DNA of 64,000 bases from an uncultured Prevotellaceae bacterium (GTDB lineage: Bacteria; Bacteroidota; Bacteroidia; Bacteroidales; UBA3663), in assembly GCA_964567855.1 (NCBI GenBank), contig CAZMOE010000008.1, positions 4,921-68,920 of the forward strand, given 5' to 3'. A program made the translations under genes and the position numbers. The notes under the pieces were generated by a model. That model was not told the origin of the DNA. It ran no database searches and saw only the letters and a list, made by a program, of their open reading frames with translations. Shown here piece by piece: positions 3,510-45,775 of this stretch (position 1 is its first letter; every line of letters begins with the position of its first letter).

Positions 3510-3572
3510 CTGTTTTCGATTTCCATCCGGCAATCGACATCTTCCTGCATCGCCGGAACCTGTTTCCAGCGA

Positions 3573-3580
3573 CAAAAGTA
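3573..3580 (-). promoter_or_regulatory. Bacteroidetes sigma-A -7 motif (TActTTTG) for the two-component operon
   Basis: The plus strand reads caaaagta, which is TACTTTTG on the minus strand, 64 nt upstream of the regulator ATG. Confidence 0.45.
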
Positions 3581-3677
3581 CTGTATTTTCTTCAACATGT
3601 GTCTTATTTTGAGACAATCCGCACCTTAAAAAAACATTTTCACGACTTTTCATCTCATAAAAGCACTTCAAAGCATC

Positions 3678-3685
3678 TATTTTTG
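3678..3685 (+). promoter_or_regulatory. Bacteroidetes sigma-A -7 motif (TAttTTTG) for the efflux operon
   Basis: tatttttg lies 54 nt upstream of the tolC-like ATG at 3739. Confidence 0.45.
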
Positions 3686-3738
3686 CATCACCAACCATAA
3701 CAGAACGAACAACGTCTCAACCTGCACACATAATCACG

Positions 3739-6452: not shown

Positions 6453-6518
6453 GCGGGAAACAATTACAAAGAACTATAAAACAATATCCACGAATTCAAA
6501 TCAAAAACATTGTATATT

Positions 6519-7202: not shown

Positions 7203-7231
7203 AAACATTCCTTACCGACACCCCCGCCCTT

Positions 7232-9586: not shown

Positions 9587-9721
9587 AGTATTCCTTTTTC
9601 CTGCTGTCCGAATGCGACACCGGGAAAGAGACTTTCCGCTGACACCCGCCGACCTGGAACCGCTCTTCCGTGGCTCATCGGATTTCCACACAACTCCATT
9701 CATCCATAAACATTCATCGAT

Positions 9722-12070: not shown

Positions 12071-12200
12071 CGGAGTAACCGGCGGCGCAAGACGGGAATC
12101 GGCTCCATGTAAATGATTGCCGCTTCCCGCCCTGCCGCAGGGAAGCCATATAGAGTGAGAAGGCCTTCCTTTTTTACAGAAACAACTAACTACAATCCAC

Positions 12201-23721: not shown

Positions 23722-23733
23722 ATCAGAATCATT

Positions 23734-25464: not shown

Positions 25465-25481
25465 GAAATCCACAGTATATA

Positions 25482-27830: not shown

Positions 27831-27909
27831 GACTGTTATCTTATTTTTTATTTGAAGAATTATTAATGACATATCACCTATTCCTGTGAAAAATCTTCGG
27901 TCCGGACGT

Positions 27910-29307: not shown

Positions 29308-29338
29308 AGTATATAGAATAAATATGTGTTCATGGTGG

Positions 29339-29346
29339 CAAAAGTA
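29339..29346 (-). promoter_or_regulatory. sigma-A -7 motif (TActTTTG) for the MFS-GH35-GH43-DUF5107 unit
   Basis: The plus strand reads caaaagta, 32 nt upstream of ATG 29307. Confidence 0.45.
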
Positions 29347-29406
29347 CAAAGAAAAATCGACACCGCCGGTGGATAATCGTGCTATTTCATGTGGACAATC
29401 GTCCCA

Positions 29407-30309
29407 TCATGGAGTTTCTTTCATGTATTGGCTGCGGAAGCGACCGGCAGAGATCCCCATGATCTTCTTGAACGTGCGTGCAAAATACTGGCTGTCACTG
29501 AATCCCAGCTTATAGGCGATCTGCCCGACCGACAAAGGGGTATCGATCAGCAAAAGGCAGGCCTTGTTCACTTTTAAGCGGATAAAATAGTCCAACGGTG
29601 ACTGTCCCGTTTCCTCTTGAAAACGACGATAGAAATGGGACCTCGAAAAATGTCCTGCGGCAGCCATTTCCTCAACGCTCAGACGGTTTTCCACATTTTC
29701 CTCCATATAATGAATGACCTTGCCGACGGCATCCGTATCACGTTTTTTCCGATATGCTCCCTTCCGATAGACATTTACATAACGGAAAGTCCCCAGCAGA
29801 TGCTGCAAAACAAGATTCGCATAACCGAGAGCATCGGCATTAAGATTCTTGCTGAGTAAAAAGAATATCTCCTCAAACAAATCGATACGTTCGGCGATCC
29901 GGGAATCATCGGCAGGAGAGATACGTGTCGGAACAGCCAATCCCTCGGCAAGACACGGGGCTTTCAGCCCGTCAAAATGCAACCAATAGATCGACCAGGG
30001 ATCTTCCTCTTCGCTGCCATAGGCATGCGCTGCGCCTTTGGGAATCACGATAAACTCATCCTGCGACAATCGGCAACGGCCGCCGGCGACATCGACCCAA
30101 CCGCTGCCATCCCTGACGTAGATGAGAATATACTCCGGGCTGCCGCCCGGACGACGGACATAGTGGAACCGTGCATGGGGAAAATATCCGATGCAGGAAA
30201 GATACAGATCCTGCGAAACCAGGCTCTGTGTCACCTTCCCGACAACGGCCGGAGGTATAGTGAGGAATCGCTGCCCCTCAAATCCGTCCGCTAACTTCGG
30301 TCTGATCAT
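29407..30309 (-). CDS. AraC-family transcriptional regulator (cupin sensor + HTH)
   Basis: Start trimmed to MIRPKLADGFEGQRF. N-terminal cupin-like region (FHYVRRPGGSPEYILIYVRDGSGW..., IPKGAAHAYG). C-terminal AraC double HTH (SHFYRRFQEETGQSPLDYFIRLKVNKA..., GFSDSQYFARTFKK). Confidence 0.88.
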   Translation of the reverse strand: MIRPKLADGFEGQRFLTIPPAVVGKVTQSLVSQDLYLSCIGYFPHARFHYVRRPGGSPEYILIYVRDGSGWVDVAGGRCRLSQDEFIVIPKGAAHAYGSEEEDPWSIYWLHFDGLKAPCLAEGLAVPTRISPADDSRIAERIDLFEEIFFLLSKNLNADALGYANLVLQHLLGTFRYVNVYRKGAYRKKRDTDAVGKVIHYMEENVENRLSVEEMAAAGHFSRSHFYRRFQEETGQSPLDYFIRLKVNKACLLLIDTPLSVGQIAYKLGFSDSQYFARTFKKIMGISAGRFRSQYMKETP

Positions 30310-30329
30310 GGCATACTGATTTATCGGGA

Positions 30330-30337
30330 CAAAGATA
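30330..30337 (-). promoter_or_regulatory. sigma-A -7 motif (TAtcTTTG) for the AraC regulator
   Basis: The plus strand reads caaagata, 21 nt upstream of ATG 30309. Confidence 0.45.
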
Positions 30338-30370
30338 AGCAAATATTCCGCAACAGAGGATGCCCGGATG

Positions 30371-32017
30371 TTAAAATCCGCCTCCGACTACCGCAGCAGT
30401 CCCTTCACGAAGGGCGACAGGAATCCGATGCGTTCCACAACCGGACGGTTCCGTCAGCGACACACCGGGAACGGTATGGATGAAACGGATATCGGAAGAT
30501 TTTTCTCCCCCGATGATCAAAGTAAGCGAATCGGAAGGTGTGGAAAATCGGACACGGTCGAATGTCACGCGGCGTGCATCTAAAAAATGGATTCTTTCAT
30601 TGTCTGCAGCGATATCCAGATTCCGCAAAGTGAAACCATCGACATCATCCAATGCGCGGACAAGTTCACGGCAATGAATTCGCCCGTTCTCAATGGAAAC
30701 ATCCGAAAGCGGCGCCTCCGGAATACAATGCCCGGTCATCAGCCGATCCGCCGAAGCGACAACAAAATCACGTATATGTATATTGCGGACGACGGGAGTC
30801 AAAGGCGTCATCTCTCTGGCGGGAACACGCGCCGCCAGCTCGCCGACATATTTGGACTGCCCCAGCAGATCCCACGTGAAAGCCTCTCTGACATCATTCA
30901 TACGGATACGCTCGCAAAAGAATCCGTCTACCCCTCCCCCTCGGTTACGGCGGGTCTTGAAGCGGACGGCCCGATCGTTACCCTGAAAGACACAATCATG
31001 CACGTAGACGTTGCGGATATGACCGGCAGTCTCACTGCCGCATGTGATACCGCCATGCCCGCTCAGGGCCAGACAATGACGAATCAGGATATTCTCTGTC
31101 GGACGATTGACGCGGATACCGTCTTCCGCGCGACCGGCTTTCATGGTGAAACAATCGTCTCCGTTGCTGAGTGTACAATATTCTATCAACACATTGCGGC
31201 TTGACTCGATGTCGATTCCATCACCAGTAGGAATACCGACGGAATAAACCGTGACGCCGCGAACAATCACACTGTCGCAGTAGATCGGCACGATATTCCA
31301 AGTCACACCCTGCTTGATGGTGATGCCTTCGATAAGCACGCGACGGCAATCGACAGGCGAAATGGCCTTCGGCCGGTAAAAGGAACGACCACACAGACCG
31401 TCGCCGCCCCTTGCGGCAATCGGGAGACGATAATCTATTTCCTGTTCGATGACTTTCGTATTGCTGCGGGCGGTCCGAACTTCAGTATCAGGCGCCGGCC
31501 CGAAAATAATTCCTCTGCCCGTCACTGCGATATCCTCCTGTCCCAGCGCGTAGATGAAAGCACCCGATCCCATCAGTTCGATGCCCTCCACCCGGGTAAA
31601 AACAGCCGGCTGATAGTCGGCCACACTTCCGCTGAAATGCAATTCAGCCCCTTCGGCAATGTGCAGGTTGACCCGGCTCTTCAACTCAATACGTCCGGAC
31701 CGCCACCGGCCGTGCGGGATGACCACCATACCACCTCCTCGCCGGCTCACCTCGTCGATCAAAGTGTTCACAAGATCTGTGATCATGCTATCCGGTTGGG
31801 CGCCCCGCTCCCGAATGTCTATGCACAAAGCCGGAAATTCCGGACGGTGCAAAGTAGGAAAAAAGAACGGGACACCCTCCGGCGGTACTATTGTATCGGG
31901 CAGGAGTTGTGCCCCCACCTCTCCCATCTCCGGGATAACAACCTGCGGAATAGCCCGGCTTTTTACCATCCAACATATCCCTGCCAAAACGAAAATCCAT
32001 ATTCTGCAATTTTTCAT
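30371..32017 (-). CDS. glycoside hydrolase family 28 (exo-galacturonidase / rhamnogalacturonan galacturonohydrolase-like)
   Basis: Signal peptide present. Parallel beta-helix repeats with GH28 catalytic blocks PTGDGIDIESS, NGDDCFTMKAG, SGHGGITCGSE and RFKTRRNRGG. Confidence 0.85.
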   Translation of the reverse strand: MKNCRIWIFVLAGICWMVKSRAIPQVVIPEMGEVGAQLLPDTIVPPEGVPFFFPTLHRPEFPALCIDIRERGAQPDSMITDLVNTLIDEVSRRGGGMVVIPHGRWRSGRIELKSRVNLHIAEGAELHFSGSVADYQPAVFTRVEGIELMGSGAFIYALGQEDIAVTGRGIIFGPAPDTEVRTARSNTKVIEQEIDYRLPIAARGGDGLCGRSFYRPKAISPVDCRRVLIEGITIKQGVTWNIVPIYCDSVIVRGVTVYSVGIPTGDGIDIESSRNVLIEYCTLSNGDDCFTMKAGRAEDGIRVNRPTENILIRHCLALSGHGGITCGSETAGHIRNVYVHDCVFQGNDRAVRFKTRRNRGGGVDGFFCERIRMNDVREAFTWDLLGQSKYVGELAARVPAREMTPLTPVVRNIHIRDFVVASADRLMTGHCIPEAPLSDVSIENGRIHCRELVRALDDVDGFTLRNLDIAADNERIHFLDARRVTFDRVRFSTPSDSLTLIIGGEKSSDIRFIHTVPGVSLTEPSGCGTHRIPVALREGTAAVVGGGF

Positions 32018-32032
32018 ATCTCAATTCTATCG

Positions 32033-34732
32033 TTATTTCAATTTCAGATTCCGGAACCAATGCCTACCGGAATTCAACCGCTTCACTTTACCATCAGGCA
32101 AATGCACCTCCGCTGTGGTATTAGGCGGCAATACGATCATCCATTCTATACCGGAATCCCGACGGTGCCATTCGCTCCGGATAAGCCCATAAGGCGACCG
32201 ATGCGAGGCCACGACCCCGGAGAGCGCCTCCGTATGGAAATCGGGCCTCATGATAACATGTTTGAAACCGGGAATGGAAAGATCGCTGCTGATTCCCGCC
32301 AGATTTTCAAAACACCAAGGCAACAAATCTCCCAACAGCATAACATGATTACCACTATTCATCGAAGGATTGGCGGTATTGCCGTTCCATAATTCCCAGA
32401 TCGTGGTCGCTCCGTTCTTTAGCATATATCCCCAACCGGGATATTCCTCGTTGGAGGCGATCCTGTAAGCAATGTCGCCACAGCCGATAGAAGAAAGGTA
32501 GCGCATCAGCCACTGGATGCCGATCACCCCGCAACTTAAACGTCCCTCATTCTTCTCGACAATCGTCTTGATCAGCGTACGGCGTACAGCCTCTTCCTCA
32601 TTTGCAGGAACAATGCCCATAGCCAATGGCATTAAGTTAGCCGTCACTGTAGAATTGCCATACGTACCCTCTTTCAAAAATTCAGCATTGATCGCCTGGC
32701 ATGTTATTGCCGCCTCTTTTTTATAATAATCCGCATCCGCGTTCCTATTCAAACGAACAGCATGACGCGCCATCATCTTGCAAAGATAAAAGTAGTAGCA
32801 AGAAGAGATGAGCCGGCCTTCCGTAACCCGTGCGGGATCTTTGCTGTGAACCAGTGTAAGTTTTTCAGGTGGTACGCACCAATCGCCGTATCGGTCGTAA
32901 GTGATCAATCCTTTGTCATAAGACCTGCCGCGCACATAACGCAACCACTTGTCGATAAAGGGGTAGCATCTGTCCATCGGGCGAAAATCTCCATACTGGC
33001 GATACAGCATCTCGCAACCGAACGGAAGTGCTGCCGGCCAAGTGATATTGGTATTATAAAGCCGCCAATAGGCAGGAGCGACATCGGAAAGCGCTCCCTC
33101 GGGGCGTTGGGAGTCACATATGTCCCGCAACCATTTTCCGTACAACGGATAAACATCCAATAAATAGCTTTCACCCAGACATCCGGTCGTACGATCACCC
33201 AACCACGGCATCCGCTCATCCCGCTGCGGACAATCAATGGGCATTCCCTTATAATTACTACGGATTCCCCGCAAGGCGGCCTGCACAATGCTGTTCAATG
33301 TCTCATTCCCTTCTATAGTAATATAATTTCCTTCGGCTGATAAATCGTCGCTCAGCAACAAACGCTCCACATCATTGACTTGAAGATCCTTGACGCCGGT
33401 AATTTCCGCATACCGGAAACCGAACCAAGTGAATTCCGGCTGCCACAGGGCCTCCCGACCGTTACCGATATAGAAAGCCGCTTGCTCGGCACTGCGCAAA
33501 TTATCTGTATAAAGCCGTGTGCCATCATGGGAAAGCAATTCGGCGTGCCGGATGCAGACCGTGTCTCCCTTAGCCGGCCGCAAACGGAGACGGAGCACAC
33601 CGGCGCCATTCGTACCGAAGTCAAGAATATAACGTTCCCCATACCGTCGGATATCGACCGGCCTTTCAACCGCATATACCCGCACCGGCTCGGTAATATT
33701 GCCATGCATTTCACCACCGGGATCACCAACCGTTTCAGCATACGGCCAATTACGGTCGTCATATCCCGGCATCGTCCAACCGGGGAATTCCAATCGGCTG
33801 TCATACATCTCCCCATCATACAAATTGGAGTAACGCACGGCACCTTCGGTATTCAGCCGCCAGGAACTATCGGTCGCAATGGTCTCGGTAGTACCGTCAG
33901 CATATTCAAGAATCAAATCGAGACGCAAACGGGGCGTTCCGTAGGTCGTGCGCACATTAGCCTGGTAGTTCTGGGCCGGAGCAAAAAAATAACCGGCCTC
34001 GACCACAACGCCGATAGCATTATCGTCACCCAACATAGAGGTGACATCATAGCTGTTGTAAGCCACGGTTCGAGTGAAATCGGTAGGTACCGGTGTCAGC
34101 CAGTCATCTCCGACGCGCCTACCATTGAGATACAGAACATAAGTACCTAAGCCAGAAACATGGACAGTGGCACGACGCAGATTGCCGTGAGCGCGAAATT
34201 CTTTTCTGAAATAACGCCCCGTACAACGACTGTGCTGCGTGCTGCTGTCATGTACAAGCAAAGTGTCGGTACCAATCCACACCCCCCGCCACAGGGAATC
34301 GTTCAGCAAGCCGGTGGTCCACATCGCGACAGGACTCCAATCGGTATGTTTTTTCCCTGCCACACCACGGACACGCCAAAAATAGGCACGATTGGGCTGC
34401 AAAACAAGTGTGCCGGGGTCAACCCATTGCGAAGTGCTACTCTCGACCCAGCCGGAATCCCAAACATCGCCTTCGCAATGTTCCGCCTTTTCACGAGAAG
34501 AGGAGACAATGAGCCGGTAAGCCGTTTGCCGCACACCGTTACGACCGGAAACCCACTGCCAACCGAAACGCGGCTGCAATTCATCAAGCCCCATAGGGGC
34601 CTCACGGCCTTCGACAGTCAGGGAGGTAAGCTCACAAGATCTCTTTTCCGAAACATGCTTTCCGGAAACTGGTAACATGTGGCCGCTCCATGCGGCCACT
34701 ATAAATAGAAGGTATAATAAGCTCTTTTTCAT
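32033..34732 (-). CDS. alpha-L-rhamnosidase, glycoside hydrolase family 78
   Basis: 899 aa with a signal peptide. N-terminal rhamnosidase block PRFGWQW...RQTAYRLIVSS...VWDSGWVESSTSQWV...LQPNRAYFWRVRG. Central (alpha/alpha)6 region with PIDCPQRDERMPWLGD. Confidence 0.9.
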   Translation of the reverse strand: MKKSLLYLLFIVAAWSGHMLPVSGKHVSEKRSCELTSLTVEGREAPMGLDELQPRFGWQWVSGRNGVRQTAYRLIVSSSREKAEHCEGDVWDSGWVESSTSQWVDPGTLVLQPNRAYFWRVRGVAGKKHTDWSPVAMWTTGLLNDSLWRGVWIGTDTLLVHDSSTQHSRCTGRYFRKEFRAHGNLRRATVHVSGLGTYVLYLNGRRVGDDWLTPVPTDFTRTVAYNSYDVTSMLGDDNAIGVVVEAGYFFAPAQNYQANVRTTYGTPRLRLDLILEYADGTTETIATDSSWRLNTEGAVRYSNLYDGEMYDSRLEFPGWTMPGYDDRNWPYAETVGDPGGEMHGNITEPVRVYAVERPVDIRRYGERYILDFGTNGAGVLRLRLRPAKGDTVCIRHAELLSHDGTRLYTDNLRSAEQAAFYIGNGREALWQPEFTWFGFRYAEITGVKDLQVNDVERLLLSDDLSAEGNYITIEGNETLNSIVQAALRGIRSNYKGMPIDCPQRDERMPWLGDRTTGCLGESYLLDVYPLYGKWLRDICDSQRPEGALSDVAPAYWRLYNTNITWPAALPFGCEMLYRQYGDFRPMDRCYPFIDKWLRYVRGRSYDKGLITYDRYGDWCVPPEKLTLVHSKDPARVTEGRLISSCYYFYLCKMMARHAVRLNRNADADYYKKEAAITCQAINAEFLKEGTYGNSTVTANLMPLAMGIVPANEEEAVRRTLIKTIVEKNEGRLSCGVIGIQWLMRYLSSIGCGDIAYRIASNEEYPGWGYMLKNGATTIWELWNGNTANPSMNSGNHVMLLGDLLPWCFENLAGISSDLSIPGFKHVIMRPDFHTEALSGVVASHRSPYGLIRSEWHRRDSGIEWMIVLPPNTTAEVHLPDGKVKRLNSGRHWFRNLKLK

Positions 34733-34742
34733 ATTCTATCTA

Positions 34743-36809
34743 TCATTTAAAATAATCACACCACTTCAAATAATACATCAGCGCAAAATCCTGATCATTG
34801 GCCATTGGATCGAGAAAGCCTGCCGTCTGCCCGTTGACACGGGTCGGATATATCCAGGCGCATCCGCCACGTCCCTCTTCCGTAAAAAGGCAAAGATTGC
34901 CTTCGAGAATGGTACGCGCACGCTCCATATAACTCCTGTCGCCGGTACAAAGACTGTAGTTAGCGTAACAATCGGCCGTAATGCAACTCCAATAATGAGG
35001 CATGGTATCTCCCCAATAACGATGCTTGCCGAACCAAAAGCCGTCCCAATGGCGAATGGCGATATTGTTGAGATGATAACTGGGCTGATTCCCTCCAAAG
35101 GCCTCGACAACAGGCAACAGACGGCGGGCAGCATCCAAATAGCGTTGTTCGCCGGTCACAAGATACATTTCACAAATAAAGTCAACCGAGGGAGCGACAA
35201 TACTCTGCTCATAGTTCACTTCAAACTTAGGATAGTTCACTCCGTTGGCAATATAAACATCGGCCGCTTTGCGATATTCGCCCAACAGCGTATCGGCCTC
35301 GGCGGTCATCCCATTTTTACGTAGCAACTCCAGACTTTGAACGACGGGCACGTCAATGGTGTAAAATCCGTAGCCGCCTGCACGATAGGCCGCCATCTGG
35401 GTGCGGTAGCCATCCGTCAGGTATTGCTTGTTACCGGTCGCCATGAAGGTTTCAAAATAAAAATGAGCGACCCAAGGATAGTTATAGATACGATGCTTGG
35501 ATTTTCTATCCCATTCGGACCAAGTTTTATAATCCGGATCCTGTATTGCAGTACGTACAAAGCGAGCGTACTTAACCAACGCGTCGCGCAAACGACGATC
35601 CTTTGTGCGCCAGCATTGTTTCGCCAGAAAAATCCCCATTCCGACACGCTCTCTACCCTCACTCAAATCGCTGCGTTTATTGCCTTTCATCCAGTTGAGA
35701 TAAAGTGTTCCGGTTTCATTGTCATAAGGAAGCAATGCGCCGTCTCTCGGATCACCGGGACAATCATATTGTTGATGTGAAACGATAAAATCGGCGCGGC
35801 GGGCTATAAGATCATTGACATTACATGTTCCCAACAATTCTATACGGGTTCCCATGCCATCGGCATATCTACATTCGACACCGATATGGCCTATACGGTC
35901 CACTTTATAGTCCGCGGTCAGCATTCCGTCACGATAAACGGTCTTGATGGCTCTTCCGTCCACATAAAAACGACCGTTCATTAGCCGGGCACAGGCTTCG
36001 GCAGTTCGGGCATCTGCTCGCAGCCGAACTTTATCTCCAGCCTCGGCGACATAACGATCGGCCCCGGCGACAATACCGCCATAGGCGAGCAGTTTTGCAT
36101 AGAAGTCCTGCTCGCCGGCATGAGCAAACAACCGCCATTCAATGGTATCACTCTCTCCAGGAGCCAAACGGCGATCCGAAGGAGCAAGACAAATGATACC
36201 GCGGGTATTGGACATTCCTTTCCGGCTGTCCCGTTCTTTAATGACATATCCGTCCAGACTGCCACGGGTAAGCATCAACCCCAGATGAGGAGCAGCTCCG
36301 CCCATACGCAAAGCATACACATAAGCGGCATTTCCCCCGGCCCAAATATGAGCATGACAACGATGGGAAACGCACGTGGCGGCATCCGGATAGTTATCGT
36401 TGAAAGGGGTATTGATTTCCATCTCATTTAAAAAAATACTCTTGGAAGAGATGTTCTTAAAAATATACTGTTCCACAAGATCATCCCCGTGACAGAATCT
36501 CGCAACATTCAATTCGACACGACCGTCGATATGATATACACTACCCGTCCGACCGACACGGTCAGCCACCGTCCAGGCAACAGTTTTTTCATTATCCAAA
36601 CGGACGCTTCCTAAGCCCCAGCCCCATTCCCGACCGATCCATTCATATTGACGGCCATCGGGACTGACAATCCAATTCATGCCGGACGGGTCTCCGTCAA
36701 TGGTTATTCGGGTAATTCCGCCGGTTTCGGGTGCCACGTCCATTCGAACCTTCTGTGCGTAAAGTGAAACTGCGGTTATCGATATCAGAAATAAAATAAT
36801 TTTTTTCAT
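34743..36809 (-). CDS. secreted protein of unknown function (N-terminal beta-rich half + C-terminal helical, W/Y-rich half; candidate carbohydrate-active enzyme)
   Basis: Start trimmed to MKKIILFLISITAVSLYAQ (ATG 36807-36809). 688 aa. It is wedged between GH78 (10-nt gap) and the GH106-like gene (71-nt gap). I cannot place it in a named family by eye. Confidence 0.6.
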   Translation of the reverse strand: MKKIILFLISITAVSLYAQKVRMDVAPETGGITRITIDGDPSGMNWIVSPDGRQYEWIGREWGWGLGSVRLDNEKTVAWTVADRVGRTGSVYHIDGRVELNVARFCHGDDLVEQYIFKNISSKSIFLNEMEINTPFNDNYPDAATCVSHRCHAHIWAGGNAAYVYALRMGGAAPHLGLMLTRGSLDGYVIKERDSRKGMSNTRGIICLAPSDRRLAPGESDTIEWRLFAHAGEQDFYAKLLAYGGIVAGADRYVAEAGDKVRLRADARTAEACARLMNGRFYVDGRAIKTVYRDGMLTADYKVDRIGHIGVECRYADGMGTRIELLGTCNVNDLIARRADFIVSHQQYDCPGDPRDGALLPYDNETGTLYLNWMKGNKRSDLSEGRERVGMGIFLAKQCWRTKDRRLRDALVKYARFVRTAIQDPDYKTWSEWDRKSKHRIYNYPWVAHFYFETFMATGNKQYLTDGYRTQMAAYRAGGYGFYTIDVPVVQSLELLRKNGMTAEADTLLGEYRKAADVYIANGVNYPKFEVNYEQSIVAPSVDFICEMYLVTGEQRYLDAARRLLPVVEAFGGNQPSYHLNNIAIRHWDGFWFGKHRYWGDTMPHYWSCITADCYANYSLCTGDRSYMERARTILEGNLCLFTEEGRGGCAWIYPTRVNGQTAGFLDPMANDQDFALMYYLKWCDYFK

Positions 36810-36880
36810 CAGAAGTAAGTTTTGAATTAAATAATAGTTCCGCCCCAGACGAAAGCCGGGCTTCAACCAGAGATAAACGC

Positions 36881-39800
36881 TCAATGGTTACCGGAACACC
36901 GGCCACCGGTCTCCGCCACAATCCAGAAGGCCGCGGTCAGGCCAGAAGGCAACAACGCATCATCCGGATGCACAACGGAAGGATAAGCATAAGTGACACG
37001 CCCGGTTTCCGAAAGCGAGCAATCATAAATCATTCTGTTGACCAATGAATTGGCCACATGAATCTCTACTTTATTCATGCCGGGAACCAGAAAATCGGTC
37101 ACGTCGACCATTTCCGGAGAACACCAGACGACACCGGCGTCGCAGCCGTTTATATATACATGCGCACCGAAACAAGATGTTTCCAATCCTAAATACATCC
37201 GCCCATGAATGGTGTCGACCGTTACCTCTTTCCGATAAACCGCAGTGCCGGAATAATAGCGTACTGAGGGATCGGTATGTGTCGTCCAATCGATAAGGCT
37301 ATCGAACAGAATTTCGCCGGCTCCTCCTGCCCGTTCATCAAAACAGACGCTCCAGGCCCCGTCTATAGGAATGCGGGAGCTCCCTGCCGCAGGCCGTTCA
37401 AAGGCGGGAAGAGAATCATTCCGATCGGAAATAACGATGAAAGAAGATTCCCGAGGATGGAAATCGAGATCCAAGGTGACGGAACGGCCGTCGGCCCGGA
37501 TAACAGGCAAAGCAAATCGTTCTCCGGTCACGCTATTCCACCATTGCGCATAACGGCCCGCCGCTTGAAAAGTAAACCGGTTGTGTTCGGCTGTATCTTT
37601 GTGATTGTCGATAAAGAAAACATCCGCATCACTAAGCCGGCGACGGGAGAAATAAAGCCGGTTGCTGTGCGTATCACCAACAGCCAGAGAAACATCGGCG
37701 GATATACCCGCACAAGCGACAACCTCAGACAGCGGCATCCCCCAATATACCCTTCCGCGACCATATTTTTTGTAGCCGGCCGGAGTATTGTCCCACATGG
37801 CGTCCACCAATGCCCGGTAAGCCGCATCCTGCCCCACATCGGCCGCCGATCCGGAACCGATAGGACGTCCGCCATACACTTTGGCACCTTTTTCTACCAA
37901 ACGGGCCATGGCCTGCAATGCCTTGAACGTAATATCGCCATTGCGAGGCAAAACCATAAGCTCATATTGCACTCCGTCGGGCAGAACAATCCTACCGTCG
38001 GAAACATCCATACGCGAAACCAACGCGTCGGTGGTGAACGCATCGAAATCGAAACCTCCGGGAATTTCCGGCAAGCGATAAGTCAGGATCTTGACCGGAG
38101 CATTTTCTCCCAAATAAATGCAAAGCTGCGCGGCCGGTTTTCCCTGACGCAGAACATAGGCATTACGCGCCTGATAATCCCAGAACGGACGGCTGTAAGG
38201 CCAAAACGTATTATTGCGATGAATGCAGTAATGCCGCCCGCCGCCGGTATTGCCAGGATAACGATCTGCCGCCCAAGGCTGATAGGCAGATGCACAGACA
38301 ACGAACTCATTGATGCCGTAGGCATAGGCATAATCGGCCAATTGTTTCAGATCGGACAGCGATGCGGAGAATTTCGCATCGGTATAGGCCTCGGCCGAAG
38401 CAACGGTCTTACCGTAAAGATGCGCGGCGGAGGCACTCTCCTTGATATCGTAATTACCCTCGGGATGGATGGCCCAAAATTCACCTTGCGGCTTGTCAAC
38501 CTTACTCTTGGCAAGAATAGGATCGCCTGGGATACAGAGTGCATTGCCGATGGCCTGGGCCGTAAATGTCAGACCCCGGTCATGGCAGAGACGACTGATA
38601 GTTCCGTAATAATTGTCGGCCATCAGATCGGCAATATTACGGCGAACGTCGAAAAGAATCCGCTCGGAGAGAGCCGTGCTATCGACCACATACCCCATCA
38701 TCACCGGCAGATAAGGAATAAGATCATATCCACGCCTTGCTTCAAATTCCCCGGCGAAGCTATCCGTCCAATTCTGCGATCCGGCCTCGTGGCTATCCAT
38801 CGCGACACCGACCAGACAACCGCTTTTGCTGACCAAAAGCGAATCATGAATACGCGCCACATAATTTTTCCATTGGACTTCGGCTGCCTGACGGGATAAC
38901 TTGTCGCATTCCAGCCCCATCAGGTTCCTGCGACCGTGTTTGATTTTCTTACCGGTCGGGACTGCGTAAAAGCGCATGATTTTCCACCGGCCAGCAGGTA
39001 CCTCCCAGCGGAGCATTCCTATTGTATCCATCCGGTCGGTCAGGTTCACGATGTCGCGCGATGCTATCACTTCGCCGGCAACATATCCCGGTTGTCGGCA
39101 CGGTTCTATATATTCGGCATGCAGACCCACTTTTTCCTCCCACTGGTCTACCCGCGCCGAAGAATGCAATACAACCCTGCCCAATTGCAATGCCGTATTG
39201 GAGATACTGTCATGCCACCAGTCGTGAAGATTCAGCCGGTAACAGGCGGCTGTTTCTGCATCGAAAGCAATGGTTTTTACATTAATTCCGCCATGAGCTG
39301 TGTAGATGGGACGGAGATCGCAGACCTTTCTGTAATTCACACCGTCGTCAGAGGCCTCTAAGCTTCCAGGCGAAGGCAATTCAAAGAAACCGGTTCCCAC
39401 AAATGTATCGGAAGGCGGACCCGGAACATTCGTTGCGCTGGTAGTCGCCTTACCACGGGGTTTCATCTCATAAGAAACGGCCCGGGCTGTGAACGGCCGG
39501 TCAAAATCAAGATTCACATAAATATTACCATGACGCAAAGAGGCCTCTTTCTGCAACACAGCAACGGCACCCTCCTCCCCCAATATGCGGGTAAGATCCT
39601 TTATTTCTCCGGCATTGGTCGAGACACAGATTTTCCGGCAGGAAAAATCCTCATCCGATTCGCCGACAGGGAAAGCCAGCACCGCTATATCCTTATAATA
39701 TCCGAGGTTGGCACGAGGTGCCGGCAACATTCCGGCAAATTCCCGGCCGCCGGCCACAATAAGTTCCTCCGCCTGGAGCCGCTTCATAGCGAGGGCCGGA

Positions 39801-40216
39801 GTAATCCAGGGGCCGCCGGCAACAAAACCGTTGGAAACATGCACCTCGAAGCTCAGCCCCAGCCGCTCGGCCTCTTCTGCCGAAAAACGCAGCATCTGCC
39901 ACCACTCATCGCAAAAGGCGGGAAAGGCATGTTCCATTTTGCCATGTGTCTGGTCATAATAAACAACCCCTCCGACACCGGCACTCCTGAAAGCCTCCAG
40001 ATCGGCGGTAATCCCTTCACGCGTGGTCTCAGTCTCTCCATGAAACCACCAGACTTTGGTACGGGTACTGTCCTGCGGATGTTCAAAACCGTATAAGGCC
40101 TCCTCGAAACCGGCATCCCTCCCGGAGCGGCGGGAATCACAGGACGAAAAGAGAAGCAGACACAGCCACACTGCGGCAAAAAGCATCTTGAAGATAATAC
40201 GGGGTATATTTCTCAT
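36881..40216 (-). CDS. large glycoside hydrolase lipoprotein, GH106-like alpha-L-rhamnosidase (tentative)
   Basis: 1111 aa. Lipobox LLFSSC. The N-terminal block [37 protein letters not shown] and the C-terminal galactose-binding-like block [14 protein letters not shown]...[10 protein letters not shown] resemble what I recall of Glyco_hydro_106 proteins. The family call is unverified. Confidence 0.55.
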
Positions 40217-40290
40217 AAGAACAATAATATTTTCAATCGTTTAATATGTAGAAGGCGAAGATATCCGACCCTGGAAAATATATAAGGCAA

Positions 40291-40298
40291 CAAATATA
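40291..40298 (-). promoter_or_regulatory. sigma-A -7 motif (TAtaTTTG) for the GH106-unknown-GH78-GH28 unit
   Basis: The plus strand reads caaatata, 75 nt upstream of ATG 40216. Confidence 0.4.
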
Positions 40299-40391
40299 CG
40301 TATTTTTCGATAAACAGAGGGATTTCCGGCGTCAATCTCCAAAGCAGCGTAGCCGTTACAGATGGATAACGCCGGAATCCCCCCACCGTCA

Positions 40392-42818
40392 TCAATGATT
40401 TGCCTGAGAAGTGGTCTTCAATTTCAACACACGCCCCTTCATGCCATCGCAAGAGACCCGAATCTGAACCTCACCGGCCTCATGAGTGGCCCGTAAAACA
40501 GCGAGGGCAAAGCCTCTATGTAGCTGTCCGGTCGTTCCGGCAAAAGTTTCACCGGTATAATGATCGTCATTATCGAGTGCCACGAGGCGGGCAGCACCAC
40601 TCACGTCGACGGTAACCGTTCCCGTGGCCGTGGGGACGGCATTCCCTTTGTTGTCAACGGCAAAAATTTTTATGTATTGAAGATCCATACCGTCGGCGGT
40701 CCATCCGGCCGGACTTTCGGCTACCAATTGAATGGCAGAGGCCCTTCCCGTAGTGCGTAATTCATGACGTGCTACCTCTGTGCCCCCTGTGCGGGCGATG
40801 GCAACGATCCTCCCACCATTATCATACGGCACGTCATGCCAGTAAATCATGTTACGCTTGCGGATATCGCTCCGGTCATTTTTCCGGGTACCCATCGACT
40901 GGCCGTTGACCCACAGCTCGACCTCGTCGGCGTTGGTAAAGGTGAAAAGCTGCTGCACGGAACCGGTGGTACGGTTCCAATGAGACGACAAACGCAATCC
41001 GCCGACGGTGACATCGTTCCAGTCGACATTCTCGGCGGCTTCGTCGACCACGCCGATACGAACTACAGGTTCTGCGGAAAACGCGCTTTTCAGGAGATAG
41101 GCCTGCGGGTAAGGCTGAAGCGCATGGCTGAAAAATGAATAATTCCAACCTTTCTTCGGCCAGCCGTTCGATTCGCCCCAGTATTCGATCGCACCCCAAT
41201 AGGCCAGTCCCACCATACGGTCGCGATCCATACCGAAATAAGGAGCCAACAATTCATTGGAGGTAGCCTCACTCTGATAAACGATCAGGTCCGGCTTATA
41301 CTCGAGGTATTTCGGATAGGCTTCGAACTGGTAATTGTAGCTCGCAATATCGGTGACAAGGGAAAGTTCCGGCGGAGTGAAATTACCGTTAAAACCTCGG
41401 TCTTTACGGTTGATCGCTCCGGCACGGGCGGGATACATGGCCACGGTAGTTTTGCGAGTCGGATCATAGCGTTTGAGCAGGGTATCGAAAATCCGATAGG
41501 TCGTCACGCCCCAGTCTCCGGTCGGATAGCCCGCCAGATCTTCCCGCATCTGCAACTCGTTACCCAGACTCCAAAGAATGACCGATGGATGATTTCTATC
41601 GCGCTTCACCCACTCCGTTATCAGCTCCGGCCACATCTGCATAAACGGTCTGCGGCCACCCCAATAGGATTCATCGCTCCATTTATCGACCAATTCGTCA
41701 ACCACCAGGATTCCATATCTGTCGGCCAGGGCATAAAAGGTTTCAGAATAGGGATTATGAGAACAGCGGATATGGTTGAATCCGAAAGCCTTCATCTGCC
41801 TGAATTGCCGCTCGATGGATCGCTCAAAGGCCGCGACTCCCATGGCTCCGAGGTCCTGATGATTGGCAATACCTTGCAGAAAAATTTTCTCGCCATTGAG
41901 TTTAAGACCGAATTTCGGTGAATATTCTACCGAACGGATACCGAACGTTTCAGTTATCCGGTCTATCTCCCGTCCCTGATGCACCAGCCGGACCTCGGCG
42001 GTATAAAGATTCGGTGCATCGCATGACCACAACTGCGGAGTTGCCACCACAGCCGCAGGTAGGGGCATTTCGATGTTTTTTAACTTCGTTCTCGTGACGG
42101 CGGGAACACTCGTTTCTGCCACCGGACTTCCATCGGGCGCGAAAATACGGGCTTCAATGCCGACATCGCCCCGTTTATGGCGCAATCCTTCCACTTCGAC
42201 CTGAATACAAACCTCTGCCTGCCGGGAACTGACCGTTGGGGTCGTGATGAAAACTCCATGGCGGGCAATCGCGGTAGAATCTTTCACGACCAGATGGACA
42301 TTCCTGTACAAACCGCCCCCGGTGTACCAACGCGATCCTCCCTTTTTGCCAGTCGAGGCACATACGGCCACGACATTGTCACCCTCAAAATCCAACAGCG
42401 AAGTGATATCCACCTCCATGCCGAGATAACCGTAATCGGTACTGGCCACTTTCTGCCCGTTCACCCAGACATCCCCGAGTAGCATAATACCTTCAAAGTC
42501 CAGCAAGACCCGTCCGCCCTGCCATGAGGAATCGGCTTTAAAGGTTTTGCGATACCAGCCTTTTCCCATAGCCTTAAAGCCTCTGGCCCCGCCGGCAGAT
42601 TCCGTCCACGGCTGTTCGATCTGAAAGTCATGGGGCAAATCCAGCATGCGCCAGCCGGCGTCATCATAGTCTCTTGCGAAAGCATGTTCCGCGTCGCCGG
42701 CATGAAACTTCCAGTCGAAATTAAATAACTGAACCGAACGAGAGCGAGCGGCTGTTGCCTGCACCATCATCCAGAAAGCGACAAGCATCCACGACATTAT
42801 AAACGACTTCTTTGTCAT
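40392..42818 (-). CDS. glycoside hydrolase family 2 (beta-galactosidase/beta-glucuronidase-type)
   Basis: Signal peptide present. GH2 blocks FNFDWKFHAGD...DDAGWRMLDLPHDF, NHIRCSHNPYSETFYALADRYGILVVDE and NHPSVILWSLGNE. Confidence 0.9.
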   Translation of the reverse strand: MTKKSFIMSWMLVAFWMMVQATAARSRSVQLFNFDWKFHAGDAEHAFARDYDDAGWRMLDLPHDFQIEQPWTESAGGARGFKAMGKGWYRKTFKADSSWQGGRVLLDFEGIMLLGDVWVNGQKVASTDYGYLGMEVDITSLLDFEGDNVVAVCASTGKKGGSRWYTGGGLYRNVHLVVKDSTAIARHGVFITTPTVSSRQAEVCIQVEVEGLRHKRGDVGIEARIFAPDGSPVAETSVPAVTRTKLKNIEMPLPAAVVATPQLWSCDAPNLYTAEVRLVHQGREIDRITETFGIRSVEYSPKFGLKLNGEKIFLQGIANHQDLGAMGVAAFERSIERQFRQMKAFGFNHIRCSHNPYSETFYALADRYGILVVDELVDKWSDESYWGGRRPFMQMWPELITEWVKRDRNHPSVILWSLGNELQMREDLAGYPTGDWGVTTYRIFDTLLKRYDPTRKTTVAMYPARAGAINRKDRGFNGNFTPPELSLVTDIASYNYQFEAYPKYLEYKPDLIVYQSEATSNELLAPYFGMDRDRMVGLAYWGAIEYWGESNGWPKKGWNYSFFSHALQPYPQAYLLKSAFSAEPVVRIGVVDEAAENVDWNDVTVGGLRLSSHWNRTTGSVQQLFTFTNADEVELWVNGQSMGTRKNDRSDIRKRNMIYWHDVPYDNGGRIVAIARTGGTEVARHELRTTGRASAIQLVAESPAGWTADGMDLQYIKIFAVDNKGNAVPTATGTVTVDVSGAARLVALDNDDHYTGETFAGTTGQLHRGFALAVLRATHEAGEVQIRVSCDGMKGRVLKLKTTSQANH

Positions 42819-42844
42819 GATATTTATATTTTATTTTGCGTGGA

Positions 42845-42852
42845 CAAAAGTA
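42845..42852 (-). promoter_or_regulatory. sigma-A -7 motif (TActTTTG) for the GH2 gene
   Basis: The plus strand reads caaaagta, 27 nt upstream of ATG 42818. Confidence 0.45.
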
Positions 42853-42888
42853 GGCAATAGAGTAAGGAGCTCCGGCAAAGTATTCACA

Positions 42889-42920
42889 AAAGAGGTCGAA
42901 AAGTGATTTTTCGACCTCTT
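42889..42920 (-). terminator. terminator of the propeller/AraC regulator gene
   Basis: aaagaggtcgaaaa gtga ttttcgacctcttt: perfect 14-bp stem, 4-nt loop, 13 nt after the stop at 42933. Confidence 0.65.
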
Positions 42921-42932
42921 TGTGGCAATTTT

Positions 42933-45710
42933 TCAACCTTTTCCCGCATCCTGGGCATATTCTGTCGGGCCTTTTCCAAATTCTTTTCTGAAGCATGAAG
43001 AGAAATACTTCGGATCATTATAACCTACGCGAACCGCCAACTCCACGATGCGAATATCCGGCTGCTCTTCCAGAATACGGGCCGCGGCCTTGAGGCGCAT
43101 GATCCGGACAAAGGAAAGCGGATTCATGCCCGACAATTCCTTCATGCGATTGTAAAGAGTGCTCCGGCTCATGGACATCTCCTCTGCAAAACGATTGACA
43201 TCGAAGTCCGCGTCAGACAAATGGAGGTTCACACATTCCGCAGCAGCCTGCAGGAAGCGTTTATCTTCATCCGCCGATCCGTCGACCGGCAACACGATAT
43301 CCAAAGAAAGATTTTTCCCGACAAAAGCCGCAGCCCGTTTCTGTCTGTGTCGGATCAAAAGAAAAATACCTGCTGCCAATGATAAAGCAATGACAAGCAC
43401 CAGTCCAAAAACTTTTATCCATAGGCCGAAAGCTCCTTTTATGGTCAATTCCAACTGTATCGGTGGCCCCCAAACTCCATTTTCATCCGTGGCCTTGAGT
43501 TCGAAGGTGTATGAACCGGCCGGCAAATCCGAGTATGCCGCTTTCCGATGGGCGGCATCGACATGACGCCACCCGTCATCGTATCCATGAAGACGGTAAG
43601 CGTATTGAATGATTTTCGGACGACGGAATTCAAGAGAGGCAAAGCATATCTCCGCACTGGTCTCGCCGATCTGGATATCGGTAAAGACCAATGGCGCGGC
43701 TGAAGACTGCGAAATCATATCGGAAGGGGAAAAATAGATCAGTCCTTTGCCACAACCGAAATACAGTATTCCATCATGGCGGCAGGAAGCATTCGGATAG
43801 AAAAAGTTATCGATCAAACCATCGGCGATAGTGAATACGCGCAAGCCAGTCGGTGTTCCCTCGGAAGAAAGGGATAAACGAACAAGCCCGGCGTTAGTTC
43901 CTATCCAAAGATTGCCGTAATCGTCCGCCTCAATACAAGCCGCCATATCACCGGGTAAATTATAATCGGAATGAACGGAATAAAATCGGTCGGCGACGGT
44001 ATCGTACCGGCAAAGCCCCCCGCCATCCATGCCGAGCCAAAAAGTACCATCCGATGTGCCGGTGAAAAAACAAAGGGGCATTCCTATGGGTAAACTGCCA
44101 TCGGTAAAACAATATTGCCGACAAACGATAGAATCCTGGGAGAACGCTCCTCCTGTTACTCTGATTACACCAAAGGCTGTGGTGGCCAACCACAGGGCCC
44201 CGTTTCGATCTTCTGCGATCGTAATGATCTCTGTAGAAAGTAAAGAGTCGAGACCAAATAATCTAAACTCCCGCCCATCGGCATAACGGACACCGAGACC
44301 ACGGTCCGTTCCGACCCACTGATTTCCGCAGTAATCTTCATGAAGAGCATAAACATGGTTACTGGGTAAAAAATCATCCGTTTCACGCCGATATGTCGCG
44401 ATTTTTCTACCATCGCGAACACGGATAATTCCCCATCCGACAAAAGGCACAAAAATTTCAGTGCCTGCACGATTCGAAGAAAGATGCTGGATATTTTGAG
44501 AATGACGGATCACCGAATACTCGCCATCTTTATAATATTCTAAATTTTTACCAACAGCGACGTAGCACCCGCCGGCACTATCGATACATATACTTTGCAC
44601 ATGTTCGGGTGCTGCAACGGCATTTCCTTGCAAATCCATCTTCCTAAAGAACAAATCGGGAGCCTTCTCGATAATAAAAATACCGTTTCCTCGCTCGGTA
44701 GAAATCCACAAACTGCCATTGCGGCTCATTGATAAGTCTGAAATATCCCTGATAGAAGGAACCGGACCATATAATGCATCTTCCGGTGCAGAAAATATTC
44801 CTTCCTTGTCCAGATTCATGCATAGCAGATTCTCCAAAGTCCCTATCCATAAAGTATGAGTAGCCGGATCCTCAGCTAAAGAGACGACAGGAACCGGAGA
44901 GGAAGAAACCGGCGGATTTTCAGGCGTTGTCAAATAACGCTCCACGATTTCCAATTGCCGATAAACGGAAGAGGTCTCTACTTTCAGCAATCCGCTGCCA
45001 TCGGTCGCCATCCACATGCCACCCCTACTATCTTCCAGAATATCAAGTACCGTTTCCCGGGAAGAAAAAGCCCGTTGCCGCACAAATTCTTTAGTGAATG
45101 GCGAATAACGGAATAAACCCTGCCGCCACGTACCGATCAATATATCTCCGCATTTATCTTCATAAATACTTTGGACATTCATCACCTCCGGAACCTCTTC
45201 TGCCAATTTTCCGGAAGAAAGCACAATCAGACTATCTCCTATGAAATCAAAACGAGCCAGTCGCCGGATAGTACCGACGTACAATTGTCCGGTGCGGGAA
45301 AAACACAGACTATTGACACGTTGCTTGTCGACATCAGGCAGTCGGTAATGCCGCACATGTTTGCGATTCCGGTCCAGTCGCAGCAGACCGTTCTGGGTTC
45401 CGATCCACAGATTCCTGGCAGAATCTTCGGCCAGACAGATGATATCATTGCTATACGCCGCAGACGGAACTTCTTCTATGGTCTTGAAAGGCCGTACCTC
45501 GTACCCGTCATAGCGGTAAAGGCCATAAAATGTCGCAATCCACATAAAACCTTCCGCATCCTGCAAGGTCTGACGCACCATCCCGTTCGGAAGACCCTCT
45601 GCTGTCGTAAACTGAGAGAAACGAAAAGTTGTATTCTCGGCCCCTCTTACACTAAGCAGGACCACAAAAAATATCATTACCCAAAAATAAATCCGGAAAT
45701 GCCGCCTCAT
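42933..45710 (-). CDS. membrane-tethered regulator: periplasmic two-component-regulator propeller repeats + Y_Y_Y domain + single TM + AraC-type HTH (no kinase or receiver domain)
   Basis: 925 aa with a signal/anchor N-terminus. Repeated ...G.LWIGT..GL..Y/F propeller blades. Y_Y_Y block IQYAYRLHGYDDGWRHV...GSYTFELKATDENGVW. TM helix LWIKVFGLVLVIALSLAAGIFLLI. About 35 aa later comes the AraC HTH (FAEEMSMSRSTLYNRMKELSGMNPLSFVRIMRLKAAA..., GYNDPKYFSSCFRKEFG). Confidence 0.8.
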   Translation of the reverse strand: MRRHFRIYFWVMIFFVVLLSVRGAENTTFRFSQFTTAEGLPNGMVRQTLQDAEGFMWIATFYGLYRYDGYEVRPFKTIEEVPSAAYSNDIICLAEDSARNLWIGTQNGLLRLDRNRKHVRHYRLPDVDKQRVNSLCFSRTGQLYVGTIRRLARFDFIGDSLIVLSSGKLAEEVPEVMNVQSIYEDKCGDILIGTWRQGLFRYSPFTKEFVRQRAFSSRETVLDILEDSRGGMWMATDGSGLLKVETSSVYRQLEIVERYLTTPENPPVSSSPVPVVSLAEDPATHTLWIGTLENLLCMNLDKEGIFSAPEDALYGPVPSIRDISDLSMSRNGSLWISTERGNGIFIIEKAPDLFFRKMDLQGNAVAAPEHVQSICIDSAGGCYVAVGKNLEYYKDGEYSVIRHSQNIQHLSSNRAGTEIFVPFVGWGIIRVRDGRKIATYRRETDDFLPSNHVYALHEDYCGNQWVGTDRGLGVRYADGREFRLFGLDSLLSTEIITIAEDRNGALWLATTAFGVIRVTGGAFSQDSIVCRQYCFTDGSLPIGMPLCFFTGTSDGTFWLGMDGGGLCRYDTVADRFYSVHSDYNLPGDMAACIEADDYGNLWIGTNAGLVRLSLSSEGTPTGLRVFTIADGLIDNFFYPNASCRHDGILYFGCGKGLIYFSPSDMISQSSAAPLVFTDIQIGETSAEICFASLEFRRPKIIQYAYRLHGYDDGWRHVDAAHRKAAYSDLPAGSYTFELKATDENGVWGPPIQLELTIKGAFGLWIKVFGLVLVIALSLAAGIFLLIRHRQKRAAAFVGKNLSLDIVLPVDGSADEDKRFLQAAAECVNLHLSDADFDVNRFAEEMSMSRSTLYNRMKELSGMNPLSFVRIMRLKAAARILEEQPDIRIVELAVRVGYNDPKYFSSCFRKEFGKGPTEYAQDAGKG

Positions 45711-45767: not shown

Positions 45768-45775
45768 CAAAGATA
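45768..45775 (-). promoter_or_regulatory. sigma-A -7 motif (TAtcTTTG) for the propeller/AraC regulator
   Basis: The plus strand reads caaagata, 58 nt upstream of ATG 45710. Confidence 0.4.

Follow-up and report, generated by a model that had tools for sequence, protein, structure and literature searches.

The stretch of DNA analyzed here, hereafter the window, comprises 64,000 nucleotides from an uncultured Prevotellaceae bacterium (contig CAZMOE010000008.1, positions 4,921 to 68,920). On its (-) strand it contains an intact open reading frame (ORF) at 42933..45710, with an ATG start and the stop codon included, that encodes a regulator of 925 amino acids (aa); coordinates are positions in the window unless another locus is named. 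The protein comprises, in order, an N-terminal anchor, tandem beta-propellers, a Y_Y_Y domain, a transmembrane (TM) helix, a linker of ~21 residues and an AraC-type DNA-binding domain (DBD). Pfam matches Reg_prop to seven stretches of the protein (E = 1.7e-42), Y_Y_Y (PF07495) to a single segment (E = 3.7e-13) and HTH_18/HTH_AraC to residues 842-920 (E = 3.7e-18). The NCBIfam matches are AraC-family and lie only in the C-terminal part, and a GerE match is absent from the Pfam search. A first-pass annotation, made from the sequence alone, had recognized propellers, Y_Y_Y, TM helix and AraC-type helix-turn-helix (HTH), and this architecture is confirmed by Pfam, by AlphaFold2 (AF2) and by hydropathy. 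The features are collected in Table 1.

The regulator has much in common with canonical hybrid two-component systems (HTCSs) such as the heparin sensor BT4663, and BT4124. The periplasmic sensor of double propeller and Y_Y_Y is homologous, with Reg_prop and Y_Y_Y placed between two hydrophobic segments in the window regulator. The TM helix, the linker that follows the receiver (REC) domain in full-length proteins, and the AraC DBD (HTH_18) are homologous too, and the gene adjoins glycan-degrading genes. Unlike those proteins it has no HisKA domain or H-box, no HATPase_c, no REC phospho-Asp and no S/CHIP motif. There is therefore no phospho-His, no use of ATP and no REC-DBD latch. HisKA, HATPase_c and Response_reg gave zero Pfam matches in the 925-aa protein at a threshold of E <= 1. 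The nearest full-length HTCS in a search of 5.8 billion proteins is P0012 (1340 aa, 37% identity), and its alignment with the regulator has a clean internal gap of ~400-430 aa that is exactly HisKA + HATPase + REC. After the gap the regulator picks up in the conserved post-REC linker (...LSLDIVLP..DEDKRFLQ...). Degenerate remnants of kinase or receiver are ruled out by the Pfam search and the pairwise alignment together. The first-pass annotation was thus correct that H-box, ATPase and receiver are missing; the whole phosphorelay is absent, rather than degenerate. Lacking the three defining domains, the regulator lies outside the canonical HTCSs.

A hydropathy scan picked out one strong TM segment inside the protein, and the positively charged RHRQKR comes right after it. 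As in canonical HTCSs, the hydrophobic helix at the N-terminus may stay uncleaved and serve as a first TM helix, so that 'one TM helix' here refers to the single helix that joins sensor and DBD. The TM helix is separated from the first helix of the DBD by ~21-25 residues, and by ~50 from the start of the Pfam HTH_18 match. The distance is therefore short, as the first-pass annotation had stated, but its figure of ~35 residues was wrong. An AF2 model was calculated from 29 homologs, with a mean predicted local distance difference test (pLDDT) score of 82. It has a helix at residues 2-21, all-beta structure from 29 to 757, the TM helix at 761-791 and a seven-helix DBD at 813-924, and linker residues 790-812 have pLDDT < 50. 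The closest solved structure is the periplasmic domain of BT4663 (phmmer E = 1.8e-61 to 4a2l; Foldseek E = 3e-48 over ~790 columns). The C-terminus matches the HTCS REC-DBD crystal structure 12aw and the AraC DBD 2k9s.

Orthologs of the regulator with 77% and 73% identity are each exactly 925 aa in length. The locus of the former is syntenic, with the order GH2-GH106-DUF5695-GH78 of glycoside hydrolase (GH) and other genes, while the latter is on a short contig where the only visible neighbor is RimO, upstream. Compared with the 77% ortholog, the ratio of nonsynonymous to synonymous substitution rates (dN/dS) is 0.108 for the whole gene and 0.098 for the propellers; for the DBD the corresponding proportions of differences are pN = 0.106 and pS = 0.756, the latter saturated. 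Sensor and DBD are both under strong purifying selection. On its shorter length alone the gene could be taken for a decaying HTCS pseudogene, or for the product of a mis-assembled contig. The chance of this is very remote indeed. The reading frame is intact, the protein has kept its 925 aa in three lineages with identities as low as 73%, dN/dS is 0.11, the exact regulator sequence is present on independent contigs, and dozens of diverged clusters have the short architecture, including RefSeq proteins from isolates. We rejected pseudogene and artifact on the ortholog length, the synteny and the dN/dS. This agrees with the first-pass annotation, which had argued that the gene is not an obvious truncation artifact; its relatives carry the short form intact and conserved, rather than a frameshifted remnant.

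Proteins with this architecture are common. Among the 120 closest clusters at 90% identity, again from the 5.8 billion proteins, 31 are short forms of 925-992 aa that contain only Reg_prop, Y_Y_Y and HTH_18, and two of these clusters are large, with 799 and 1753 member sequences. The residues that follow the TM helix number 134-215 in all 31 short forms, compared with 540-595 in the long forms. A search with the Y_Y_Y-TM-DBD segment against 1.84 billion representatives (50% identity) placed ~25-31 short forms among its best 150. Intact ORFs are found in the cultured strains Bacteroides oleiciplenus YIT 12058, Phocaeicola sartorii DSM 21941 and Bacteroides graminisolvens DSM 19988, and in many metagenome-assembled genomes (MAGs). 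The P. sartorii protein is in RefSeq as WP_278701649.1 'two-component regulator propeller domain-containing protein', and its cluster is named 'ligand-binding sensor domain-containing protein/AraC-like DNA-binding protein' by the Joint Genome Institute. A search of the accessible literature found no description of the AraC-type short form in Bacteroidales, only generic 'HTCS-like' usage.

Short-form genes immediately precede SusC/SusD and GH115/GH2 genes, where an HTCS classically sits. In species-representative genomes 15/15 short-form loci flank SusC/D or GH genes (the survey proposed in the first-pass annotation had asked whether GH genes are always adjacent), and 13 of the 15 flank a GH115-GH2 pair. 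At several polysaccharide utilization loci (PULs) the short form is the sole regulator. In loci of the B. oleiciplenus type (L004 3662-7609 (-), also L007, L018 and L027) a full-length 1315-aa HTCS with 22% identity and a GH2-like gene are divergent and just upstream of the short form; both presumably belong to the neighboring PUL. At L082 16815-18324 (-) a soluble HisKA-HATPase protein (281 aa) and a stand-alone REC protein (143 aa) are encoded 4-5 kb from short form P0020.

Comparison of the sequences indicates that the short forms derive from canonical HTCSs by in-frame internal deletions, whose junctions include at least two that are mutually incompatible. In class A the juxtamembrane segment and helix 1 of HisKA are kept up to KLQFFTNI, and reference residues 836-1230 are deleted; the deletion begins exactly at the phospho-acceptor His. 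In class B only RRRMMxRNxLQ and a variable spacer are kept, and the sequence resumes earlier, at LAFEIKDLNYTD. Each of these classes retains a segment that the other has lost, and so neither can be derived from the other. In class C, the group of the window regulator, the TM helix leads almost directly into the post-REC linker. On a tree of sensor domains short and long forms interleave, with the short forms nested in the HTCS clade. There are at least three changes of architecture in 100/100 bootstrap trees and at least four in 97, and the short forms are never monophyletic. A single origin of all short forms is thus ruled out by the incompatible junctions and the bootstrapped trees. The class A junction either arose once and then spread by recombination, or arose repeatedly.

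One and the same PUL, with the order SusC (1108 aa)-SusD (565 aa)-GH115-GH2, is headed by long form P0012 in one locus and by short forms P0006 and P0010 in two others. The identities between the P0012 locus and the short-form loci are 88%, 83-84% and 81% for the PUL proteins, and 80-81% for the sensor of the regulator. The P0006 and P0010 loci are no closer to each other than either is to the P0012 locus, and the regulator-SusC spacers of all three have in common a conserved hairpin and a TACTTTTG box. The short and full-length regulators of this PUL are orthologous replacements.

Other reduced architectures were observed among the loci. A 964-aa Reg_prop-Y_Y_Y-HTH_18 protein beside a SusC-like gene in the uncultured Bacteroidales UMGS440 (L072 9941-12835) is 22% identical to the window regulator; in this distant HTCS lineage the short architecture has probably arisen independently once more. 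P0039, from a Dysgonomonas MAG (L019 9962-13375), is a 1137-aa Reg_prop-Y_Y_Y-HisKA-HATPase protein of the same HTCS clade without REC and AraC DBD, i.e. the complementary truncation to the short form. A 715-aa Peripla_BP-HisKA-REC-HTH_18 HTCS for which a HATPase_c match is not on record (L083 5118-7265 (-)) may be another reduced HTCS.

The sequence of the DBD also bears on its relationship with the receiver. In canonical HTCSs the S/CHIP loop of REC latches an Asp of helix alpha6 and a Lys of the recognition helix alpha8 of the DBD (PMC11253607, Gao et al.; PMC13292587), and the latched DBD stays off the DNA until phosphorylation (PMC11253607; PMC13292587). All 14 long forms that fall within the short-form clade have the latch D/K pair, and the CHIP motif is detectable in 13 of them; its counterpart is missing in the window regulator. 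At least one latch residue is substituted in 18 of the 31 short forms (Fisher p = 1.6e-4, a value that is indicative only because the sequences are related). The window regulator and its orthologs have K->R, and one ortholog has D->G in addition. Relaxation of the latch residues only in the short forms supports a loss of dependence on REC.

Table 1. Regulator gene, its predicted parts and associated features in the window
Feature	Position	Strand	Basis
925-aa short-form HTCS-derived regulator gene	42933..45710	(-)	ORF, Pfam, AF2; dN/dS 0.108
N-terminal hydrophobic helix, residues 1-21 (signal peptide or uncleaved TM anchor)	45648..45710	(-)	AF2 helix 2-21; sequence MRRHFRIYFWVMIFFVVLLSVRG
Periplasmic tandem beta-propeller sensor, residues 29-690	43641..45626	(-)	Reg_prop; all-beta in AF2; BT4663 4a2l/4a2m; dN/dS 0.098
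Y_Y_Y domain, membrane-proximal, residues 697-757	43440..43622	(-)	PF07495 match
TM helix, residues 761-791, RHRQKR after it (positive-inside)	43338..43430	(-)	Hydropathy, AF2
Short cytoplasmic linker, residues 792-812; site of class C junction; corresponds to post-REC linker of full-length HTCSs	43275..43337	(-)	Low pLDDT, junction comparison
AraC-type DBD, residues 813-924, seven helices, two HTH motifs, latch Lys->Arg	42939..43274	(-)	HTH_18; 12aw, 2k9s
Bacteroidetes-type -7 box TATCTTTG (TAnnTTTG), 58-65 nt upstream of regulator ATG	45768..45775	(-)	Read from sequence
Perfect 14-bp inverted repeat AAAGAGGTCGAAAA-atcac-TTTTCGACCTCTTT, 5-nt loop, 11 nt past stop	42889..42921	(-)	dG -22.7 kcal/mol, z = -7.0
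Two TTGCC words, 21 bp spacing (42878-42874, 42857-42853), just upstream of GH2 -7 box	42853..42878	(-)	Read from sequence
-7 box TACTTTTG of GH2 operon, 27-34 nt upstream of GH2 ATG	42845..42852	(-)	TAnnTTTG; invariant in orthologs
Putative regulon, co-directional, tightly spaced	20365..42818	(-)	Pfam, ORF spacing

The genes for RimO and FtsY are located upstream of the regulator. Downstream is the putative regulon, which from the regulator has the order GH2, GH106, DUF5695-like, GH78, GH28, cupin-AraC, major facilitator superfamily (MFS) sugar transporter, GH35, GH43 and DUF5107-TPR, with gaps within the cluster that are mostly 8-57 bp. No SusC/SusD pair was found by Pfam in the window. The cluster has instead an MFS sugar transporter (27910-29349) and a cytoplasmic cupin-AraC regulator (29407-30342), and is a non-canonical cluster of carbohydrate-active enzyme (CAZyme) genes with two regulators.

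Promoters of Bacteroides have the -7 consensus TAnnTTTG, and boxes of this kind precede both the regulator and the GH2 gene. A scan of the flanks of the regulator for sigma-70 promoters and terminators was uninformative, and the sigma-70 model is unsuited to the phylum Bacteroidetes. The gene's own promoter motif and the perfect 14-bp inverted repeat described in the first-pass annotation are both real, as read from the sequence and, for the repeat, from its calculated fold. This hairpin is nearly invariant across the orthologous loci; it is terminator-like, but may instead be a palindromic operator. The TACTTTTG box upstream of GH2 also precedes SusC in related PULs, and is likely the promoter that the regulator controls. 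The spacer between the regulator and GH2 (114 bp) is 89% identical between orthologs, despite a dS of ~1.3 that indicates near-saturated synonymous sites. Within it, the two TTGCC words would be a weak candidate for tandem half-sites, and we regard them as a lead only; they are unconserved in the ortholog locus L001, which has TCACC and TCGCA there. The half-site spacing reported for HTCS BT4124 is 21-22 bp (PMC13292587).

The GH115-GH2 PULs have the same layout as the window. A long conserved hairpin (AGGTTGAAACATGTTCC...GGAACATGTTTCAACCT) and then the TACTTTTG -7 box are found after long- and short-form regulators alike. The hairpin region is located at L085 14024-14192, L081 5608-5759 and L087 3526-3679, with equivalents in L004 and L005, and the L087 hairpin has one compensatory change, of C-G to T-A.

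Some genes farther from the regulator may be mentioned. A choloylglycine (bile-salt) hydrolase family protein is encoded at 14602-15675 (+) (CBAH E = 4.6e-58), and suggests a habitat in the gut of a vertebrate host. The region 5202-14531 (+) encodes an HlyD-type adaptor, an ABC ATPase and then three tandem MacB/FtsX-type permease paralogs (784, 782 and 776 aa). At 1939-3698 (-) there are adjoining genes for a 325-aa HATPase_c protein and a 261-aa REC-HTH_8 (Fis-type) protein, the latter resembling an NtrC-like response regulator without the AAA+ domain. This pair is ~40 kb from the regulator, and there is zero evidence of a link between them.

How does the regulator compare with known membrane-bound regulators? 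In a survey, transmembrane transcription regulators were defined as having a DBD and at least one TM segment in one polypeptide, without phosphotransfer domains (PMC10269533). The window regulator has this architecture, and binding of DNA from the membrane is predicted for it. The closest characterized architecture is that of TfoS (VC2080) of Vibrio cholerae. TfoS has a large HTCS-related periplasmic domain, a single TM helix and a cytoplasmic AraC-type DBD, and no two-component domains (PMC3903286; PMC7564644). It is activated by periplasmic chitin oligosaccharides, even in Escherichia coli, and binds DNA and activates transcription from the membrane (PMC3903286). It differs in being from another phylum, in its response to chitin oligosaccharides, in having a small-RNA promoter (tfoR) as target and in its cooperation with ChiS. 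The Bacteroidales short forms, for their part, originated recently, through deletions inside HTCS genes.

Among PUL regulators, BguR of Formosa agariphila is the closest, with the same layout: a signal peptide, beta-propellers, Y_Y_Y, a single TM helix, a linker and a DBD, and no HisKA, HATPase or REC (bioRxiv 10.64898/2026.01.10.698779). Its gene is immediately upstream of the PUL genes, and an induction of the PUL of more than 80-fold requires BguR (same preprint). The authors of that work knew of a comparable architecture only for SusR (bioRxiv 10.64898/2026.01.10.698779), and so the AraC-type version from the gut was not covered by it. The output domain of BguR is a GerE/LuxR HTH (PF00196), in contrast to the AraC HTH_18 of the window regulator. 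The HMM for BguR-type proteins calls for this GerE domain together with a single TM helix and Y_Y_Y, and by its DBD the window regulator falls outside the type. BguR is from marine Flavobacteriia, where it belongs to beta-glucan PULs, and the structure of its sensor diverges from that of Bacteroides thetaiotaomicron HTCSs. The window regulator lies beside GH2/GH106/GH78/GH28 without SusC/D, and its relatives flank GH115-GH2 PULs. In ToxR, CadC and TcpP the DBD is an N-terminal cytoplasmic winged helix (OmpR-type), and the periplasmic domain is C-terminal. By comparison with ToxR and CadC the topology of the window regulator is reversed and its DBD is AraC-type, and from general knowledge the folds of both sensor and DBD are unrelated. 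The logic of a single polypeptide is the same: an extracytoplasmic sensor is joined through one TM helix to a DBD that acts from the membrane, and no phosphotransfer takes part (PMC10269533). The window regulator is equivalent in logic to TfoS and BguR; it is catalogued in databases under generic names and seems to be uncharacterized. The architecture is less unprecedented than the first-pass annotation had implied, since TfoS (Vibrio) and BguR (Flavobacteriia) are characterized proteins with HTCS-like sensors and no phosphorelay.

We consider it likely that the protein is a functional, membrane-tethered and phosphorylation-independent one-component regulator, derived from an HTCS by in-frame loss of HisKA-HATPase-REC, and that it acts on the adjacent GH2/GH106/GH78/GH28 cluster. 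Signaling from the membrane without phosphorylation had been proposed in the first-pass annotation. It is supported by the absence of the relay, the selection acting on the gene, the recurrence of the architecture, the position at PULs, the orthologous replacement and the relaxation of the latch. The ligand, operator and gating of the window regulator are what we infer, and this is equally true of the gating mechanism and pectic ligand in the earlier proposal. The regulator would be a dimer, as is BT4663, and its sensor would bind an oligosaccharide from a plant glycan containing rhamnose, galactose or uronate, such as a pectic glycan of the rhamnogalacturonan (RG) type or a type II arabinogalactan. 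Ligand binding would lead to a scissor-like closure of the periplasmic dimer that draws the two TM helices together. Such a scissor-blade model was reportedly put forward by Lowe and colleagues in 2012 for the BT4663-type periplasmic dimer. The two DBDs, each on a leash of ~21 residues, would thereby gain the spacing or orientation needed for paired half-sites, which should lie in the regulator-GH2 intergenic region (42819-42932). With the REC latch gone, nothing but geometry or proximity would be left to gate the DBDs. In HTCSs the dimeric protein holds the DBDs in pairs, which bind to tandem half-sites spaced at ~21-22 bp (PMC13292587). Occupancy of the half-sites would then switch on the GH2-GH106-GH78-GH28... 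operon, with the regulator still in the membrane and neither ATP nor phosphotransfer needed.

Several points weigh against this reading. As REC keeps HTCS DBDs off the DNA (PMC11253607), a protein without REC could be constitutive rather than ligand-gated. The linker between TM helix and DBD is predicted to be disordered in the regulator, and also in a class A member with half of HisKA helix 1 remaining, where ~20 linker residues were modeled with pLDDT < 50; no rigid path for coupling is visible in these monomer models. The class of ligand is guessed solely from the families of the neighboring GH genes. No confident operator was found in the flanks of the regulator, where the TTGCC pair is unconserved in the ortholog. 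Lastly the cluster is without SusC/SusD, and the cupin-AraC regulator might be the main regulator of part of it.

The tethered dimer can be set against three other modes of action. One is regulated proteolysis, in which the ligand would cause the protein to be cut within or close to the TM helix, and the ~135-residue tail (linker plus AraC DBD) would be released as a soluble activator. The short linker with its predicted disorder would suit such a process, an isolated HTCS REC-DBD fragment is monomeric and competent to bind DNA once unlatched (PMC13292587), and release would remove the problem of reaching the DNA from the membrane. Yet there is no conserved protease gene beside the short forms in the loci examined, paired half-sites favor a tethered dimer, and the characterized analogs TfoS (PMC3903286) and ChiS (PMC11856585) are described as acting while membrane-bound. 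We therefore think proteolytic release unlikely. It is equally improbable that the DBD without its latch is always competent for DNA, such that, with or without ligand, the protein fixes the basal expression of the cluster or represses it. This idea draws on the constitutive activity of HTCS DBDs that results from unlatching mutations (PMC11253607; PMC13292587), and on the short forms missing the latch altogether. But constraint within the protein is strongest on the periplasmic sensor of ~730 residues (dN/dS 0.098), and the sensors of short forms stay ~80% identical to those of long-form orthologs, which makes it hard to accept that sensing is irrelevant. Furthermore, TfoS without its periplasmic domain loses function (PMC3903286).

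The short protein might also have no transcriptional role of its own, and might instead heterodimerize with a full-length HTCS paralog or titrate ligand from it, as the first-pass annotation had offered as an alternative. PULs that encode two HTCSs are known (PMC13292587), and some short-form loci have a second, divergent HTCS nearby, for example the 1315-aa HTCS upstream in the B. oleiciplenus locus. However, that neighbor (L004) is 22% identical and the nearest full-length HTCS 37%, which is too distant for heterodimerization of the sensors. Several short forms are the only regulator at their own PUL, and the DBD is as constrained as the sensor, when a pure decoy would need none. A role as decoy or partner is thus unsupported, and we would give it a rather small chance. 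In our view a tethered one-component regulator accounts best for the protein.

HTCSs are the main regulators of polysaccharide utilization in gut Bacteroides, and both the route by which the periplasmic signal reaches the DBD and the reason for the fusion of kinase, receiver and DBD are debated (PMC11253607, PMC13292587). After TfoS and BguR the architecture alone is unsurprising. A widespread, conserved variant without the relay shows that the relay is not obligatory for selection to keep this pair of sensor and DBD, especially because the variant replaces full-length orthologs at the same PUL. The short forms are minimal sensor-TM-DBD proteins for the dissection of transmembrane signaling, and could be used for glycan-responsive switches without ATP-dependent steps. 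PUL-prediction pipelines that require the full set of HTCS domains may overlook such regulators. Recurrent deletions with distinct junctions, together with short and long orthologs at one PUL, provide a useful natural experiment on HTCS signaling. Tentatively, and with rather less confidence than we have in the regulator itself, we suggest that HisKA-HATPase-REC of Bacteroidales HTCSs is a dispensable add-on that has been discarded repeatedly, with short alleles taking over the same PULs as their full-length orthologs. If that is true, ligand-driven movement of the sensor and TM helix would suffice to gate an AraC DBD, and the phosphorelay would be only an extra latch or gain control. The natural short and long pairs (the P0006 and P0010 PULs vs that of P0012; P. 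sartorii) would then make transmembrane signaling by HTCSs testable by the swapping of alleles.

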